Source: a virus (Duplodnaviria > Caudoviricetes). Taken from it: a stretch of DNA of 60,963 bases. Under the pieces are notes generated by a model. It saw nothing but the letters and a program-made list of their open reading frames with translations, ran no database searches and was not told where the DNA came from. The stretch covers positions 1 through 60,963 of IMG/VR virus record IMGVR_UViG_3300050004_000011, one strand, 5' to 3'. The position numbers and the translations under genes are program-made. This document shows positions 2,793-9,901 of this stretch, piece after piece; position 1 is the first letter of the stretch; each line of letters begins with the position of its first letter.

Positions 2793-4352
2793 TCACCGTC
2801 GGTTGGCGATCTTCGCCAGGTTCTCTCGGTACCGCCTCGATTTGTCCGCGAGGCGGTCCAGGGCCTGGGTGGTGGTGTCAACGTGATCGTCGTGGGTGAA
2901 CCGGGGGAACTTGATGTGCTCCTCCCTGACCACGTCGGCGCCGATGATGTACTCGATCTTGTCCACCTTGCGCGAGTCCCCGGGCGGGTACACCACCTGC
3001 CCTGACTCCCACTTCTCGGTGTGGACGTGGTAGCGCTCCTCCTTGGACCCCTGCGGCTCCACGCCCTTGATGCCGGGGAATTTTGATTGCATCTCCTCGA
3101 TGATCGCTGGACCGTTTGCCTTGAGCTCGATCAGCTTGATTTTTGCCCGGTGCCAGTGCGGGCGGGACTGCGCGAGCGTGAACTGCGCCTTGGACGCCAC
3201 GTAGTTCCAGTGCCCACCGACCCAGTCGATCAGACAGTACATCTCCGGGCGCCCCTCGAGCTTGCGCACGATGTAGTCATTTTGGGTGTTGGGCACGCGC
3301 GCCATGCGGTCAGCCAGGCTGCTGAAATACTCACGCACCTCGGCCAGGTCGCGGGTCACGCACCAGAGCTCGCCAGCCACCTTGCTGTGGCTCTCCTTGG
3401 TGCCCTTCGACGAGAAGTCCCACGACTGCACGAAGGTGCCCTTGGTGGGCGCGGAGATCCACTCGAGGCGCGTCCAGGACTCCTCCACGAAGCCGCCAGT
3501 GGCAGGCGTCGGGTCCTGCTGTAGTTGCGCCGAGGCCTCGTTCTTGAGCTTGATCTCCTGGGCGCGTACACGCTCCTCAGGGAACAGTTCCGGCCAGAGC
3601 AGTTCGCCCACTTCCTTGCGCGGGTCGCGAGCCCACATGCTGCGTTTCACCTGCCGTGCCGGCAGGACCAGGCTCTCGTAGCCCTCCGCGATGCACCGCC
3701 CCGCCAGGTCATTGCTGTGAACCCTTTGCATCACGACAACAATCCAGCGCTTAACGCGGGTCTGCAGGGTGCCATCAAACCATGCATCAACTTTCTTGAA
3801 TGCTGCCTCGCGCCCCAAAATTGCATCTTGAGGTTTGAGTGGATCGTCGATGATGATCCCGTCAACGTGACGTCCGGTTCCCTTCCCCTCTGGACTCGTA
3901 TTAAATCGAAATCCACCACGCGAATTTTTGAACTCGCGCAGAGCTGGCGCCTCCTTGCGCAGCTTCACGTACGGATAAGCAGTCTTGTATCGAGCATCGT
4001 TCAGGATGCTGATCATTTGCTCGCTTTGGTTGTTGAGCAGTGACTGGTCGAAGCTGCCCGCCAAAAAGCTGCAGCCCGGATCAAGTGTCCAGAACCATGC
4101 GGGCCAGAAGACGCCTACCATTTTGCTTTTGCTATGGCCGGGAGGAATGTTGATCACGAGGCGCTTGACTTCGCCCAACGTGACTGCGGTCAGATATTCG
4201 CAAATGGCCTCAAGATGCCAATTATCCAAAAAGTCTCGGGGGTCTGTGACGCCCCAGAACTGGCGGACAAATTCGTGTAAACCGCCCCGATCGATCAACT
4301 CCCGCATGATCAGGGCTTCTTCGGGGTCGAACTCGGTGTCGGCGTCAAGCAT
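2793..4352 (-). CDS. terL: Terminase large subunit
   Basis: INIPPGHSKS Walker A, IIIDDP Walker B, QSWDFS and HDDHVD nuclease motifs. Confidence 0.93.
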   Translation of the reverse strand: MLDADTEFDPEEALIMRELIDRGGLHEFVRQFWGVTDPRDFLDNWHLEAICEYLTAVTLGEVKRLVINIPPGHSKSKMVGVFWPAWFWTLDPGCSFLAGSFDQSLLNNQSEQMISILNDARYKTAYPYVKLRKEAPALREFKNSRGGFRFNTSPEGKGTGRHVDGIIIDDPLKPQDAILGREAAFKKVDAWFDGTLQTRVKRWIVVVMQRVHSNDLAGRCIAEGYESLVLPARQVKRSMWARDPRKEVGELLWPELFPEERVRAQEIKLKNEASAQLQQDPTPATGGFVEESWTRLEWISAPTKGTFVQSWDFSSKGTKESHSKVAGELWCVTRDLAEVREYFSSLADRMARVPNTQNDYIVRKLEGRPEMYCLIDWVGGHWNYVASKAQFTLAQSRPHWHRAKIKLIELKANGPAIIEEMQSKFPGIKGVEPQGSKEERYHVHTEKWESGQVVYPPGDSRKVDKIEYIIGADVVREEHIKFPRFTHDDHVDTTTQALDRLADKSRRYRENLAKIANRR

Positions 4353-4389
4353 GTGTAGTCATTTCAGGTAGGCCGGGATCCAGCGTCCA

Positions 4390-4569
4390 GTTGCAGATTC
4401 CAGGGCCTGCACGCCCTTTGGTTTGTGCCGCGGAGCACACCGCACTGACGTTCCTGCTCCCGTTGCAGATTCCAGGGCCTGCACGCCCTTTGGTTTGAGT
4501 GCATTGCTTGGCGCCGCGCAGGACGCCCGCACCGTTGCAGATTCCAGGGCCTGCACGCCCTTTGGTTTG
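4390..4569 (-). CRISPR. Mini CRISPR array: 3 identical 36-bp repeats, two 36-bp spacers
   Basis: Repeat (minus strand) CAAACCAAAGGGCGTGCAGGCCCTGGAATCTGCAAC at 4390-4425, 4462-4497, 4534-4569; unique spacers 4426-4461 and 4498-4533; 7 bp after the nuclease stop. Confidence 0.95.
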
Positions 4570-4576
4570 TCGTCAT

Positions 4577-5860
4577 TCACGCAGCCAAGGATATCGAGGC
4601 TTTGTGGAGGATGTTGCGAGCGGCGTTGATATCCGCGTCTTCGACGTGTCCGCAGCCAGGTGCTACGCACGTGTAGAGTTTGCCGTTCCTGGCTTCTTTC
4701 GCCACGTTGCCGCAATGCGAGCAGGTCTGGCTGGTATAGGCGCAATCCACCTCTCGCACGCGGTCACCAAGTCGCAGTTTGATGACATCCAGCGTCGCGT
4801 GCATGTAGGACAGCCCGCCTGTGTTGCTCTTGAAGTTCTTCGCAAGTTTCTCAACAGCAACGAACTCGTGGAGCTCAAGGCGCGGTAGTAATTCGGAGTG
4901 CAGCCAGTGTACCACGCGACGCTTGTCTGCTTGGTCGATGCGGGCAATCTTGCGGCGCGCACCAACGATCTGCTCAGGACAACGACTCAGGTCAGCCACC
5001 GACTGCAGGGCCGCTCGCGCGGTACGTGCCAGCGCAGTGCGGTCATTTTTCTTGGTGTAACCGTCACTGAGAGCCACCAGATCAGTCTGACCGACATCCA
5101 GCCCGACGCCAGGAGAAACAGGTGTAGTCAGTTTACGCGCAGGCACGATACACTTAACCGCGGCGTACCAACCGTCCGCACGCAAGTTGAGAGTCACACC
5201 CTGCACTTGCTTGCCTGGGATCGGTCGCCGAAGACGTCCCAGCAGAACCATCCCGTTCACCTTGATGCGCGCGTTGTACCAAGGCGCTCCTCGCCGCTCC
5301 CCGTAGAACCCTCCGGTTTCGACCAGAGGTGCGTTCCCCCACACCAGCGGGGCCGGGTCGTTTCTGCGCTTGTAGTTGGCGCGCTTGGTCCTCATCACAC
5401 GCTTTACCGTGTCGCGATACAACACCGCGTTGCCCAGACGACCGTAGATTGAGCGCAGGTCCTGGTACGAATCCTTGCGCCAATCTAGCTCCGGGCGACC
5501 TTTCACAGCGGCGTCGATCTGCTTGTAGTATTTCATCCACACACCCGACGCCAGCACGTCTTTGCAAGCACGCTTGTGCTCGCGCCAGAGCTCTTTGACC
5601 GCCAGTTTTTCTTCGTCAGTCGTTGGCGTCGGGGGGTTCGGAGGCTCTGGCATTACCGGTGCGTCGCCCACCAATTGCTCGCGTTTCGCACAGGCCTTGC
5701 GAGCGTTCTTGACGTCCTCACGCCCACGAACGATGTGGTTGGTGATGTTGCGCACCTCGTCTTGCAGGACGCGCAGGGTTGCGTGTGCTTCCGCGTCGGG
5801 GTAGAGACGGATAAGCTCGACACGTAGTTCGGTGTTCGGTGGTAGTATCAGTTTGTTCAT
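4577..5860 (-). CDS. Compact type V CRISPR effector (TnpB/Cas12f-like RuvC nuclease, 427 aa)
   Basis: N-terminal IRLYP; RuvC-I VGLDVG, RuvC-II VAVEKL, zinc finger TSQTCSHCG...CVAPGC, RuvC-III DADINAARNI; flanked by CRISPR repeats. Confidence 0.92.
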   Translation of the reverse strand: MNKLILPPNTELRVELIRLYPDAEAHATLRVLQDEVRNITNHIVRGREDVKNARKACAKREQLVGDAPVMPEPPNPPTPTTDEEKLAVKELWREHKRACKDVLASGVWMKYYKQIDAAVKGRPELDWRKDSYQDLRSIYGRLGNAVLYRDTVKRVMRTKRANYKRRNDPAPLVWGNAPLVETGGFYGERRGAPWYNARIKVNGMVLLGRLRRPIPGKQVQGVTLNLRADGWYAAVKCIVPARKLTTPVSPGVGLDVGQTDLVALSDGYTKKNDRTALARTARAALQSVADLSRCPEQIVGARRKIARIDQADKRRVVHWLHSELLPRLELHEFVAVEKLAKNFKSNTGGLSYMHATLDVIKLRLGDRVREVDCAYTSQTCSHCGNVAKEARNGKLYTCVAPGCGHVEDADINAARNILHKASISLAA

Positions 5861-5880
5861 GGTTCACACACCGTTGTCTA

Positions 5881-5916
5881 GTTGCAGGTTAGAGGGTCTG
5901 CACACCCTGTGAATCA
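5881..5916 (-). CRISPR. Solo degenerate repeat upstream of the effector, followed by a 20-nt guide-like segment (5861-5880)
   Basis: 26/36 identical to the array repeat; stem AGGGT/ACCCT replaces AGGGC/GCCCT; GTGCAG loop and CTGCAAC end invariant. Confidence 0.85.
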
Positions 5917-7611
5917 AAGCCACAGGCGCCCACCCCTCATCGTCAAAATCGCTCGCTTGCCATTATGGTAGACAACGGTGTGCGAAACGCTCCACGAGCT
6001 CGGACCGTGTGCGTATGGCAGCCGCCTGTTGCACACCCCCGATGAGAACACGCCGTCGCGGATGCACGCCTTGTGGCTGTGCCCCTTCACGATGCGTGTG
6101 GCCATGCGCGAGTACGCCGCGTCGCTGCCGCGCGAGCCATCAGGGCCTCGATCGCCGTGGAGTCCGCACTCGACGGGGTGGTCCGGCGGCCCCACCACGA
6201 AGGACTCATCGCCGCCCAGGAACCGGGCCAGGCTTCCGACGCCATGCCGCTGCATCGCCCACTCCAGGAAGTGCCACCCCTGCCCCTCGCGCAGCGCGCG
6301 GACGCGCGCCAGCTGGGCCTCGAGGTAGAGCTCGGCGTTGGGCAGGTCGGTCTTATAATCCGCCTCGTCCAGCCAGCGCTCTCCGTGAACGTCGTGGTTG
6401 CTCGCCACCACGACTGTCTGGCAGAAGTCACGGTGGGCTAGGTGCAGCAGCGTTGCGGTCACTTTGAGCTCGGCCTCCACGGTGTCGACATCAGCGCCAC
6501 CGATGTGCTTGGCGAAGCGCGCCGCGAAGGACTTCACCTCGTGGTGGCTCCGGTTGCGAAATGAGAGCGTGTCGTGCCAGAGTTGCACTCGGGGCCGCAG
6601 GGTGTCGATCACGCTGTCGGTTCGCCCCCAGTTCAGAGCGCGGACCGCAGGATCAATCTCGCTCGCGTGTATGTCTCCCCAAGATATGGCTTCGACGCGG
6701 TGTCCGCGGGTCACCTGCCCGTCCGCCACGCGGAACGTCAGATCGTGGAACGCGCCGTCGTCGTCCGCGTTCAATTGCCGACACCACCAATTCTCCGAGA
6801 CCAGGTCGACCTCAACAATGAGAGCACCGAACTGGTGATGGAACTCCGCTTTGATGCCCTCTTTTTTGGCGATGTAATTTCGCTGGGTGACGGCGCCGGT
6901 CGTGAAATTCAGCTTGGGCGGGCGCTCACCGATGACCGGCACGCTCTCGAGCGCGATCTTGGCGTGCGGGAAGATGCCCGACGCCGGTCCCGAGTACGAC
7001 TCCAATCCCGATAGTGGGCGGACCGCGGTCGGCAGGATGTTCATTTCTGCGCACCACAGCAGGTCCGGCGCCAAACGCCACTGGCAACTACCGTGCTTCT
7101 GGGGGTCGTCGCAGATGTACTGCTGGATGGCTGGATCGTACCAGAGCCCCTCGTGGTCGCTGCTGCTCGCACGCCCTGCCTTGGTGGCCTTCGCGCCGTA
7201 CGCAGATTTGTTGTAGCTGAACCTAGACACCATGATGCGAGCACCAGTGGCCTCCGCGTACGCTTCCAGGTTTGCCAGGAACTCCGCGTGCACTGGCGTG
7301 TTGTTCTGCGCGCTGGTCAAGATGTAACGGGCCACCTCCGGGCGGTGCGCGCCGGTGCACAGGTCGTTGGGTTGCGGTGCGGGGACGTGCCCGTGCACTA
7401 TCGGGCCGCTGTCGGGGGCCGGTTGCGCGGCGGCGCGGGCGCGGGCCTGCACGGAACGCAAGCGTGACTGAAGTTTGGTGCGCTTCCAGCCGAGCGCCTG
7501 CGCAGCGGTGTTCTGACTGCCGTGCTCCACCAGGGCCTCGATGGCGGTGCGCTCGGTAGTGCTCATGGGGAGATCGAGCAGGCTGGCGTACGGGTTGATG
7601 GGTGCGGTCAT
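5914..7611 (-). CDS. HTH plus metallophosphoesterase-fold protein (T5 A1-like nuclease)
   Basis: ILTSAQNNTPVH, WGDIH, SNHD, HGD, GHSH motifs; N-terminal HTH; start at MTAPINP. Confidence 0.7.
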   Translation of the reverse strand: MTAPINPYASLLDLPMSTTERTAIEALVEHGSQNTAAQALGWKRTKLQSRLRSVQARARAAAQPAPDSGPIVHGHVPAPQPNDLCTGAHRPEVARYILTSAQNNTPVHAEFLANLEAYAEATGARIMVSRFSYNKSAYGAKATKAGRASSSDHEGLWYDPAIQQYICDDPQKHGSCQWRLAPDLLWCAEMNILPTAVRPLSGLESYSGPASGIFPHAKIALESVPVIGERPPKLNFTTGAVTQRNYIAKKEGIKAEFHHQFGALIVEVDLVSENWWCRQLNADDDGAFHDLTFRVADGQVTRGHRVEAISWGDIHASEIDPAVRALNWGRTDSVIDTLRPRVQLWHDTLSFRNRSHHEVKSFAARFAKHIGGADVDTVEAELKVTATLLHLAHRDFCQTVVVASNHDVHGERWLDEADYKTDLPNAELYLEAQLARVRALREGQGWHFLEWAMQRHGVGSLARFLGGDESFVVGPPDHPVECGLHGDRGPDGSRGSDAAYSRMATRIVKGHSHKACIRDGVFSSGVCNRRLPYAHGPSSWSVSHTVVYHNGKRAILTMRGGRLWL

Positions 7612-9552: not shown

Positions 9553-9588
9553 GTTGCAGATTCTACGGCCTGCACGCCGTGTGGTCAT
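9553..9588 (-). CRISPR. Second solo repeat, ~3.7 kb from the effector, followed by guide-like ACCACACCTTCCAC
   Basis: 29/36 identical to the array repeat; compensatory stem ACGGC/GCCGT; intergenic. Confidence 0.88.
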
Positions 9589-9589
9589 T

Positions 9590-9901
9590 TCATCCAACAA
9601 CGTTGCTGAGGAACACGTTGTGATCGGGGTCGTAGGGTTGGGGGCTGTCTGCGTCTAGGATCGAGATGTCCGTCTCGATGTAATGAAAGGTGTGGTCAAA
9701 TCGATGGGTGATGGTGCGGGGCGGGCCGCCGCGATCGGGCCGCCGGTGGAACTCGGCCACGAACTGCCCGTTGCCGCCGACCCGGAAGTGGTCGAACAGA
9801 GCCCACTCACTCTCGGGCACGCTCTCGACCCACTTCATGATGGTGGGCACCAAGTCGGGGCGCCAGTTGCGAGCAAGTCCGATGATTGAATATGAGTACA
9901 A
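9590..9901 (-). CDS. Hypothetical protein containing the self-match of the solo-repeat guide
   Basis: ORF with AAAGGA RBS before a TTG start. Confidence 0.6.
   Translation of the reverse strand: MYSYSIIGLARNWRPDLVPTIMKWVESVPESEWALFDHFRVGGNGQFVAEFHRRPDRGGPPRTITHRFDHTFHYIETDISILDADSPQPYDPDHNVFLSNVVG

Follow-up and report, generated by a model that had tools for sequence, protein, structure and literature searches.

The Leader of a Phage-Encoded TnpB/Cas12f-Like Nuclease Gene Follows a Solo CRISPR-Type Repeat and Is Complementary to the Upstream Gene

Introduction

What might a single repeat of the CRISPR type (clusters of regularly interspaced short palindromic repeats) do in front of a nuclease gene, when the leader between repeat and start codon matches, in inverted orientation, the end of the preceding gene? 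The question is raised by IMG/VR record IMGVR_UViG_3300050004_000011, a phage genome that was analyzed here over its whole length (60,963 bp, hereafter the window). In this genome, the gene of a 427-amino acid (aa) effector nuclease lies behind a gene for an A1-like "DNA transfer protein," and the short spacer between them holds a solo repeat followed by 20 nucleotides (nt) that form the entire effector leader. An initial annotation of the locus had offered three explanations for the leader match: a homing guide against the flanking gene of relatives, autorepression of the effector promoter, and pairing of the two segments in read-through mRNA that hides the translation start. Here, we examine these explanations together with others that emerged from the analysis.

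Results

The Leader Matches the End of the Upstream Gene

In minus-strand orientation, the solo repeat ends in CCTGCAAC (to position 5881) and is followed by TAGACAACGGTGTGTGAACC (5880–5861) and by the effector ATG (5860), which is separated from the A1-like stop codon (5916–5914) by a gap of 53 nt. The plus strand at 5969–5988 reads TAGACAACGGTGTGCGAAAC and is identical to the leader TAGACAACGGTGTGTGAACC at 18 of 20 positions; positions 1–14 match perfectly, and the mismatches are at positions 15 and 19. This match had been reported before with the same figures, and all of its coordinates hold when the sequence is read directly. Arm A, the upstream segment, falls within the final 25 A1-like codons; arm B, the leader, contains none of the Shine-Dalgarno-like tetramers GGAG, GAGG, and AGGA. 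A repeat finder lists the two arms as an inverted repeat of 18 nt, 94% complementary and 88 nt apart.

A genome-wide scan for 20-nt arms with at least 18/20 complementarity and loops of 3–200 nt returned one pair only, which is this pair, and twenty composition-preserving block shuffles gave three such pairs in total. Considering these counts, a chance pair located exactly between the end of a repeat and an ATG is very unlikely (on the order of 1e-5 by our estimate). Other matches of the leader 20-mer in the window that are anchored at position 1 are all shorter than 8 nt. The observation is confirmed, and it is not a product of chance.

The C-terminus of the A1-like protein (...GGRLWL, then the stop) is natural and is kept in homologs; among the 43 homolog C-termini inspected, this region (...VSHTVVYHNGKRAILTMRGGRLWL) is conserved up to the final residue. 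The coding function thus constrains arm A, and of the two arms it was the leader that could evolve freely. The presence of a solo repeat in front of the effector, also claimed initially, was borne out by a covariance model of the repeats: this copy scored 48.5 bits (E-value = 2.5e-12), being itself one of the 11 training sequences, and the best match outside the 17 repeat copies reached 9.3 bits. Judged by its sequence, the element appears to be a standalone handle of the CRISPR RNA (crRNA) type, with the effector leader as a pseudo-spacer.

A Predicted RNA Stem at the Effector Start

The gene order on the minus strand is portal, head-morphogenesis gene, several small open reading frames (ORFs), A1-like gene, effector, repeats, and large terminase (TerL), and all genes from portal to TerL share this orientation. 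No terminator-like or sigma-70-like promoter site was predicted on the minus strand, either between the two arms or farther along toward the effector start. Since the genes are co-oriented and no such site separates the arms, both should be part of one RNA. In such an RNA, 19 of the 20 positions of the arms can pair, the mismatch at position 15 becoming a G·U pair.

Folding of 150 nt gave a minimum free energy of −59.8 kcal/mol (z = −4.19), which was equaled by 1 of 200 shuffled sequences. In contexts of 150, 301, 501, and 701 nt, the central 16 pairs form with probabilities of 0.97–1.00 and the flanking pair on each side with probabilities of 0.70–0.99, and leader positions are unpaired with a probability of at most 0.3. 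In the folding prediction, the stem sequesters the leader and the start codon, the A and U of the AUG being buried along with the leader. Thus, hiding of the start by RNA pairing is the best supported of the three explanations first offered, and its evidence is a predicted stem. The complementarity of the leader would be no less effective on RNA than on DNA.

We tentatively favor a model in which an RNA stem acts in cis to couple or mask effector translation and shows the handle in its loop, possibly with feedback through this handle. An intact crRNA-type handle occupies the A1-like/effector spacer, and on the probable cotranscript the leader would pair with A1-like codons −25 to −19 to give a stem of 20–22 bp. 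Hidden in this stem would be the leader together with the first two bases (A and U) of the start codon; the handle would be exposed in an 88-nt loop, and read-through RNA folded in this way may block translation of the effector. Ribosomes finishing the A1-like gene would melt arm A and open the effector start, similar to the coat-replicase coupling of MS2, in which upstream translation is said to open a masked start. Transcripts without arm A could also be open, as in the case of T4 I-TevI, where transcripts lacking one arm reportedly expose the start site. Negative feedback may arise in addition if the effector binds or cuts the handle, and a leader paired in this way would be unavailable as a guide.

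Insertion of the 36-nt repeat would have broken the proximity of stop and start, and a stem that links the effector start to the translated A1-like end may restore coupling. A coupling device after such an insertion is plausible given the close spacing of upstream ORFs in three other loci. In the two metagenomic relatives with a readable effector start region, L010 and L011 (effectors 59% and 55% identical to that of the window), the effector start is located 6 nt after a small ORF (L010) or overlaps the upstream stop as ATGA behind GGAGG (L011); in L017, a locus with a related A1-like gene, the gene after A1-like begins 1 nt past its stop. A TnpB mRNA complementary to the guide RNA scaffold has been found to lower cleavage by the TnpB ribonucleoprotein (RNP) in vitro (PMC10278001).

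Several points weigh against this model. Pairing is strongest in the 14 handle-proximal nt and weakest next to the AUG, which is the pattern of a seed on the side of a protospacer adjacent motif (PAM); masking of a start does not require such a bias, and the complementarity begins exactly at guide position 1. The leaders at 9553 and 4390 in the window and at 3363 and 3799 in L010 have no comparable stem (z = −0.87 to +0.53), and that at 5757 in L010 reaches z = −2.2 from a different local pairing. L010 and L011 lack such a stem, which is thus not a family trait. Finally, the PAM that disfavors a DNA target (TTN, see below) was derived from three sites in one 59%-identical relative.

Table 1. 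Positions of the Elements Discussed (window coordinates, except the last row, which refers to L010)
Feature	Position	Strand	Remarks
Second solo repeat	9588–9553	−	Stem CGGC/GCCG, compensatory; 30 nt before ATG of an 82-aa ORF (9522–9274)
A1-like "DNA transfer protein" gene	7611–5914	−	phrog_1745, E-value 2.8e-159, profile reached 540/542
Arm A	5969–5988	−	A1-like codons V-S-H-T-V-V-Y (partial); plus strand is the putative protospacer, 5′ flank ATGG 5965–5968
CATAAT −10-like hexamer	5967–5962	−	Immediately 3′ of arm A; no −35 partner
Solo repeat 1	5916–5881	−	73% identical to array repeat; handle core 5907–5881 (27 nt)
Arm B	5880–5861	−	20-nt spacer-like segment, entire effector 5′ leader
Effector (427 aa)	5860–4577	−	TnpB/Cas12f fold; RuvC D255/E337/D410; C-terminal zinc ribbon
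Mini CRISPR array	4569–4390	−	Repeats 4569–4534, 4497–4462, 4425–4390; spacers 4533–4498, 4461–4426
TerL gene	4352–2793	−	ATG at 4352; preceded by 37-nt leader 4389–4353 after last repeat
L010 self-matches	4521–4562, 5991–6026, 5897–5920		Array spacers 1, 2, and 6; TTN 5′ flanks

A Possible Role of the Leader as a DNA-Binding Guide

The RNA stem and the readings of autorepression, homing, relic, and anti-repeat considered below are not mutually exclusive. In an autorepression similar to CreR or tracr-L, handle and leader would be processed into a crRNA-like molecule; by its 14-nt seed and partial pairing in the distal part, the effector would bind the DNA at 5969–5988 without cutting it and lower transcription of its own gene. 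Several features agree with such a role: the handle is kept by compensatory changes (paired in 106 of 106 cells, three pairs having changed on both sides), the match runs from guide position 1 with 14 perfect nt and distal mismatches, the leader is close in length to the 21-nt short spacer of the upstream two-repeat array in L010, and the site lies just upstream of the effector and adjoins the −10-like CATAAT. The class is established for types I-B, I-E, and V-A (10.1101/2023.03.10.532045), and standalone repeats are located upstream of cas12a in many V-A loci, for which Shmakov et al. note no conserved targeting pattern (10.1101/2023.03.03.530964).

The PAM is one difficulty of this reading, and L010 is the sole source of evidence on it. 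Of its six array spacers, three correspond to diverged versions of the L010 effector gene and of the gene after the array (36/42, 29/36, and 21/24), with 5′ flanks TTTT, GTTC, and TTTC, that is, TTN in all three cases; the TT frequency there is 0.053, giving ~1.5e-4 for three. TTN is therefore the likely PAM of the family. These self-matches also point to conflict between phages with related cassettes. The window site is flanked by ATGG instead of TTN, whereas the CreR elements described so far have targets that carry a canonical PAM and are promoter-proximal (10.1101/2023.03.10.532045). A handle-retaining degenerate repeat and a contiguous 14-nt seed are both found here, but the inferred TTN PAM is not.

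A promoter is likewise not apparent. The initial annotation had noted CATAAT without a good −35, and reading by eye (no TTGACA-like hexamer at a spacing of 16–18 nt) and a sigma-70 scan agree with it; the scan found no minus-strand site upstream of the effector, phage-specific promoters being outside its reach. The context of CATAAT does not recur in the genome (22 matches with up to 3 mismatches vs. 18.6 expected). In addition, a block at this site would probably be polar on the essential downstream TerL gene, none of the three upstream solo-repeat guides of L010 has a seed match of at least 10 nt in 7.6 kb, L011 has no solo repeat, and the pseudo-spacer of the window ends at the ATG with no second degenerate repeat. 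Of the features expected for the autorepression proposed initially, handle and seed are present, but the flanking sequence (ATGG, not TTN) and the lack of a predicted promoter do not fit. DNA-binding autorepression hence appears to fail one defining test (the PAM) and to be unsupported on another (the promoter), and we consider it unlikely.

The second solo repeat offers a match that could likewise suggest a DNA target: from position 1, its guide matches 10 nt with a TTTG flank at 9696–9677 in the upstream ORF. L017 has no second solo repeat, and its counterpart of this intergenic region (83 nt) is rich in CA and contains several copies of ACC(G/A)CAC. Since this region is natively rich in that motif, the match may be due to chance and is not counted.

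Cassette Insertion and a Possible Homing Guide

Eighty loci with A1-like genes were taken from IMG/VR. Neither the handle nor an effector homolog was found in any of them (0/80), and one (L017) has a TerL homolog. Synteny between L017 (A1-like 68% and TerL 66% identical) and the window extends from portal to TerL, and L017 is free of the cassette; its A1-like gene closes with CTGTAG, and a single base separates it from the next ORF (stop-G-ATG). Judged by this comparison, the cassette is an insertion at the junction of A1-like and the next gene. This next ORF of L017 is the one that contains TerL, and it has about 86 extra N-terminal residues (6208–6470) with no counterpart beside the window TerL. 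The closest named phage, PhiJL001 (A1-like 50.7% identical), was set aside, as its junction is not syntenic and its gp07 is unrelated to the window TerL. Comparison of 4300–6100 with GenBank phages by blastn gave no match, and an Rfam scan of 3500–7000 found no family.

An inserted cassette raises the possibility that the leader guides homing or attacks rival alleles, targeting the A1-like 3′ end of coinfecting relatives with no cassette or a different one. The cut, 53–72 nt from the junction, would be repaired from the cassette-bearing genome, and the self site would be spared by its lost PAM and two mismatches. The closed junction of L017 and the absence of handle and effector from the 80 A1-like loci fit this idea, as does the intact nuclease triad. 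The contigs that carry the two closest A1-like proteins (P0043 and P0044, 93% and 92% identical) measure up to 27,182 and 59,809 nt. Effector homologs reach at most 69% identity, with none listed for a contig of either size, and as judged from contig size these genomes may lack the cassette. L010, with TTN-flanked spacer matches to variants of its own cassette genes, suggests that guides against alleles of relatives are a family habit, and the single repeat after the effector in the related contig L012 resembles the TnpB layout. Furthermore, one of the two mismatches falls on a synonymous third-codon position, at which L017 carries the base of the guide.

However, the residue after VVY is Gln in P0043 and Ser in P0044, at a position where only Lys or Asn codons give TTN, and the Gly that the base at guide position 19 would specify occurs in none of the 43 homolog C-termini inspected. 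The location in L017 fits, its junction being 53–72 nt from the target, but the sequence there matches the guide at only 12 of 20 positions (11 of 20 in L010). Because the guide points into the cassette, it also cannot match a cassette-free genome beyond its 20 nt. A comparison of alleles in relatives, suggested initially as a check, gave no matching allele in about 0.89 Mb of fetched loci. The homing explanation thus retains the inserted cassette and the ATGG flank of the self site, but the codon at the PAM position (Gln or Ser) and the missing Gly argue against it, and it appears rather improbable.

The contigs of one DNA sequencing run (X1) show 0 differences from the window and are interrupted at the array. 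A second soil metagenome (run X2) contains short contigs about 90–99% identical to parts of the effector gene (window 5110–5755), namely 361 nt over 5395–5755 with 36 differences and 172 nt over 5110–5281 with 1 difference, which indicates that close cassette-bearing relatives exist, although the contig collections searched contain none of them. None of the X1 and X2 pieces listed spans 5861–5988, and the variant table as shown has no row there.

Other Possible Readings: Relic, mRNA as Guide, and Anti-Repeat

The leader match may also have no present function. The 20 nt could have been copied in inverted form from 88 nt away during insertion, by template-switch repair, or could be what is left of an old spacer that derived from the A1-like gene of a relative and was later truncated at the ATG. 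The arms are close together and beside the insertion junction, the feature is absent from L010 and L011, and the solo handle is nearer to that of L012 (25/27 identical) than to that of its own array (22/27; both counted by eye), suggesting a separate history. Yet the leader, as the sole unconstrained partner of the conserved VSHTVVY codons, is kept at 18/20 (19/20 on RNA), the segment exactly fills the space from handle to ATG, and the handle is under structural constraint, all of which makes a mere relic quite doubtful.

A further, very speculative reading takes the effector mRNA itself as the guide RNA: the nuclease would bind the handle in the 5′ untranslated region, and the leader would both set dosage and guide cutting of the A1-like 3′ end in cassette-free or rival phages during coinfection, into which the cassette would be copied, the leader being masked in cis by A1-like RNA or occupied by protein. 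Finally, a tracrRNA (trans-activating CRISPR RNA)-type anti-repeat, with the solo repeat transcribed from the plus strand and pairing with array repeats, is extremely unlikely: many effectors of the Cas12f/TnpB fold seen here use a tracrRNA, and the antisense solo repeat is the only strong repeat partner in 3900–6100 (−46.5 kcal/mol vs. −31 or weaker), but four of six out-of-array repeats are located 20–40 nt before a same-strand ATG and the other two are co-oriented with their neighbors (co-orientation holding even for two repeats on the opposite strand of L010), the sequence changes in these repeats keep the hairpin and pseudoknot of each repeat intact and make it a poorer partner for the array repeat, and no plus-strand promoter was predicted at the site.

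The Array, the Solo Repeats, and the Structure of the Handle

The array consists of three 36-nt repeats and two 36-nt spacers (period 72) and starts 7 nt past the effector stop. Alignment of 11 different repeats (the array repeat and both solo repeats of the window, five L010 variants, and one each from L012, L013, and L002) revealed a conserved 3′ part of 27 nt and a free 5′ part of 9 nt; in solo repeat 1, the latter overlaps the A1-like stop codon. The repeats can fold into a hairpin (AGGGC/GCCCU) with a loop-to-tail pseudoknot (UGCAG/CUGCA), whose pairs are those intact in every cell of the alignment. The three pairs that vary on both sides change from GC to CG, CG to UA, and AU to GC, and the covariation score was reached by 0 of 500 shuffles. 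In solo repeat 1, the stem is GGGU/ACCC, compared with GGGC/GCCC in the array, and all ten pairs are intact. The structure predicted here resembles the Cas12a handle, although the effector family is TnpB-sized.

The covariance model found exactly five copies in the window (three in the array and the two solo repeats), all of them in its training set. The distant subfamily represented by L002 and L013 (~30% identity) has homologous repeats; a regular-expression search of these two loci found no upstream solo repeat. A degenerate repeat pattern matched no stretch in viral contigs and none in genome contigs. The two spacers of the window have no match longer than 11 nt within it and none in the fetched loci, and their best E-values against GenBank phages are 1 and 0.4.

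Counting window and L010 together, six repeats lie outside arrays. Beside the four that precede a same-strand ATG, a fifth heads a two-repeat unit before the L010 gene at 3335, and the sixth is located amid co-oriented genes. Considering this proximity and co-orientation, and since no other anti-repeat was found, the solo repeats are read as handles transcribed inside mRNAs and not as tracrRNA genes.

L010 has an array of seven repeats and four extra-array repeats, at 3363–3457 (−), 3770–3799 (+), and 6729–6764 (+). Two of them are on the opposite strand, separated by the 21-nt spacer, and precede a 208-aa gene (27 nt to its ATG). A compensatory pseudoknot change from A-U to G-C is present in three of the four (the opposite-strand pair and 3770–3799), and 6729–6764 retains the array form. 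The second solo repeat of the window begins 3 nt past the stop of a 103-aa ORF. A −35/−10-like pair (ATGACC-17-TAGAAT, 9588–9560) overlaps it; a promoter inside the repeat was set aside, being absent in solo repeat 1. In the window (4425–4353 region, minus strand), the last array repeat is followed after 37 nt by the TerL ATG, and in L010 the same arrangement is found with 38 nt and a 171-aa ORF. The TerL mRNA may start with, or be cut at, a crRNA handle.

The Effector and Its Family

The effector carries a Cas12f1-like TNB domain (PF07282, E-value = 6.5e-15), and its GLDVG, VEKL, and DADINAARN motifs align with the catalytic GVDVG, TEHL, and DRDENAA of ISDra2 TnpB. An AlphaFold (AF2) model has a pLDDT (predicted local distance difference test) of 86, and Foldseek ranked Cas12f and TnpB as the top folds (AsCas12f 8j12, E-value = 2.6e-14, TMq 0.57; ISDra2 TnpB, 8h1j/8bf8, TMq 0.55 and TMt 0.63). 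Sequence identity to solved Cas12f/TnpB chains is 13–18%, and 9–10% to two dCas12f entries. Thus, the RuvC-like D-E-D triad and the zinc ribbon (TNB) of type V effectors are present, together with an adjacent repeat-spacer array.

The effector belongs to a tight family with 26 metagenomic relatives of 425–447 aa, 50–69% identical to it, and D255, E337, and D410 are unchanged across the 27 sequences. A scan of viral contigs seeded with the single protein found nothing, and one with the family alignment found relatives at 27–32% identity only. Metagenome contigs yielded L010, L011, L012, and three relatives at 30%, and a scan of genome contigs for the family returned nothing. The L012 effector is 48% identical to that of the window over the 229 C-terminal residues present; its single repeat (710–745) follows the effector with no array on the short contig, a layout similar to TnpB and its omega-RNA. 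The sources contain no name for this family, within a limited search of the literature for it. Cas12p ("hacker") was set aside as a different, larger, tracrRNA-using family with a GTN PAM (10.1101/2025.01.20.633832).

Discussion

Comparison with Known Systems

As with CreR and tracr-L, the gene of a single type V effector is closely preceded by a degenerate repeat that retains its handle, and the pseudo-spacer of this repeat has a contiguous 14-nt seed match to a nearby upstream site. Unlike them, the target here has no canonical PAM (ATGG vs. the inferred TTN) and no predicted promoter; it lies in the coding 3′ end of the upstream gene and is inverted, so that the two segments also pair as RNA. 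Moreover, the pseudo-spacer is the effector's own leader abutting the ATG, there is no second pseudo-repeat, and the element is phage-borne.

Precedents for masked starts are said to include the "Min Jou" interaction of MS2 coat and replicase and the hairpins of T4 I-TevI, e, and soc. The window shares with them a start region that is predicted to pair, on read-through RNA, with sequence of the upstream gene, and in both cases upstream translation, or a transcript starting between the arms, would open the pairing. It differs in that the loop holds a CRISPR handle and the masked segment is at the guide position, which could allow the nuclease to read or cut its own leader.

With the flank guides of TnpB omega-RNA and the delocalized crRNA of CRISPR-associated transposons (CAST), it has in common a putative guide outside the array beside an atypical repeat and a TnpB-like effector (PMC11656645). 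The target also adjoins the insertion junction of the element, and a TnpB mRNA can damp its own RNP by complementarity (PMC10278001). In contrast, the guide of the window faces into the cassette, the flank match is inverted and limited to 20 nt, and no susceptible allele was found in the loci examined. As for Cas12f/TnpB nucleases themselves, the likeness is in the fold, the TNB domain, and the RuvC motifs; the differences are the 36-nt repeat, the 27-nt hairpin-plus-pseudoknot handle with no anti-repeat detected, and the location of the effector, which is encoded by a 61-kb phage between a DNA-transfer gene and TerL.

Biological Significance

Standalone repeats beside type V effectors are common, and a role has been established in few cases, all of which are PAM-dependent promoter binders. 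The element described here joins the repeat-derived regulatory elements known in type V loci in a variant form, with a repeat in the effector's own leader, within a phage, with a pseudo-spacer complementary to the neighboring gene. The family is also of practical interest as a source of compact nucleases, being TnpB-sized (about 425–447 aa) with a 27-nt pseudoknot handle and no tracrRNA detected.

If the mRNA itself is the guide, a phage CRISPR cassette would behave like a homing element, and the other solo repeats (9553–9588 and those of L010) would be further units. If the leader acts as a homing guide, it would link phage CRISPR cassettes to the selfish homing of the TnpB type. If the favored RNA stem is correct, it would caution against calling every seed match a DNA target, and it would reveal a novel means of adjusting how much of a self-encoded nuclease is made, which would matter for a phage that has to avoid cutting itself.

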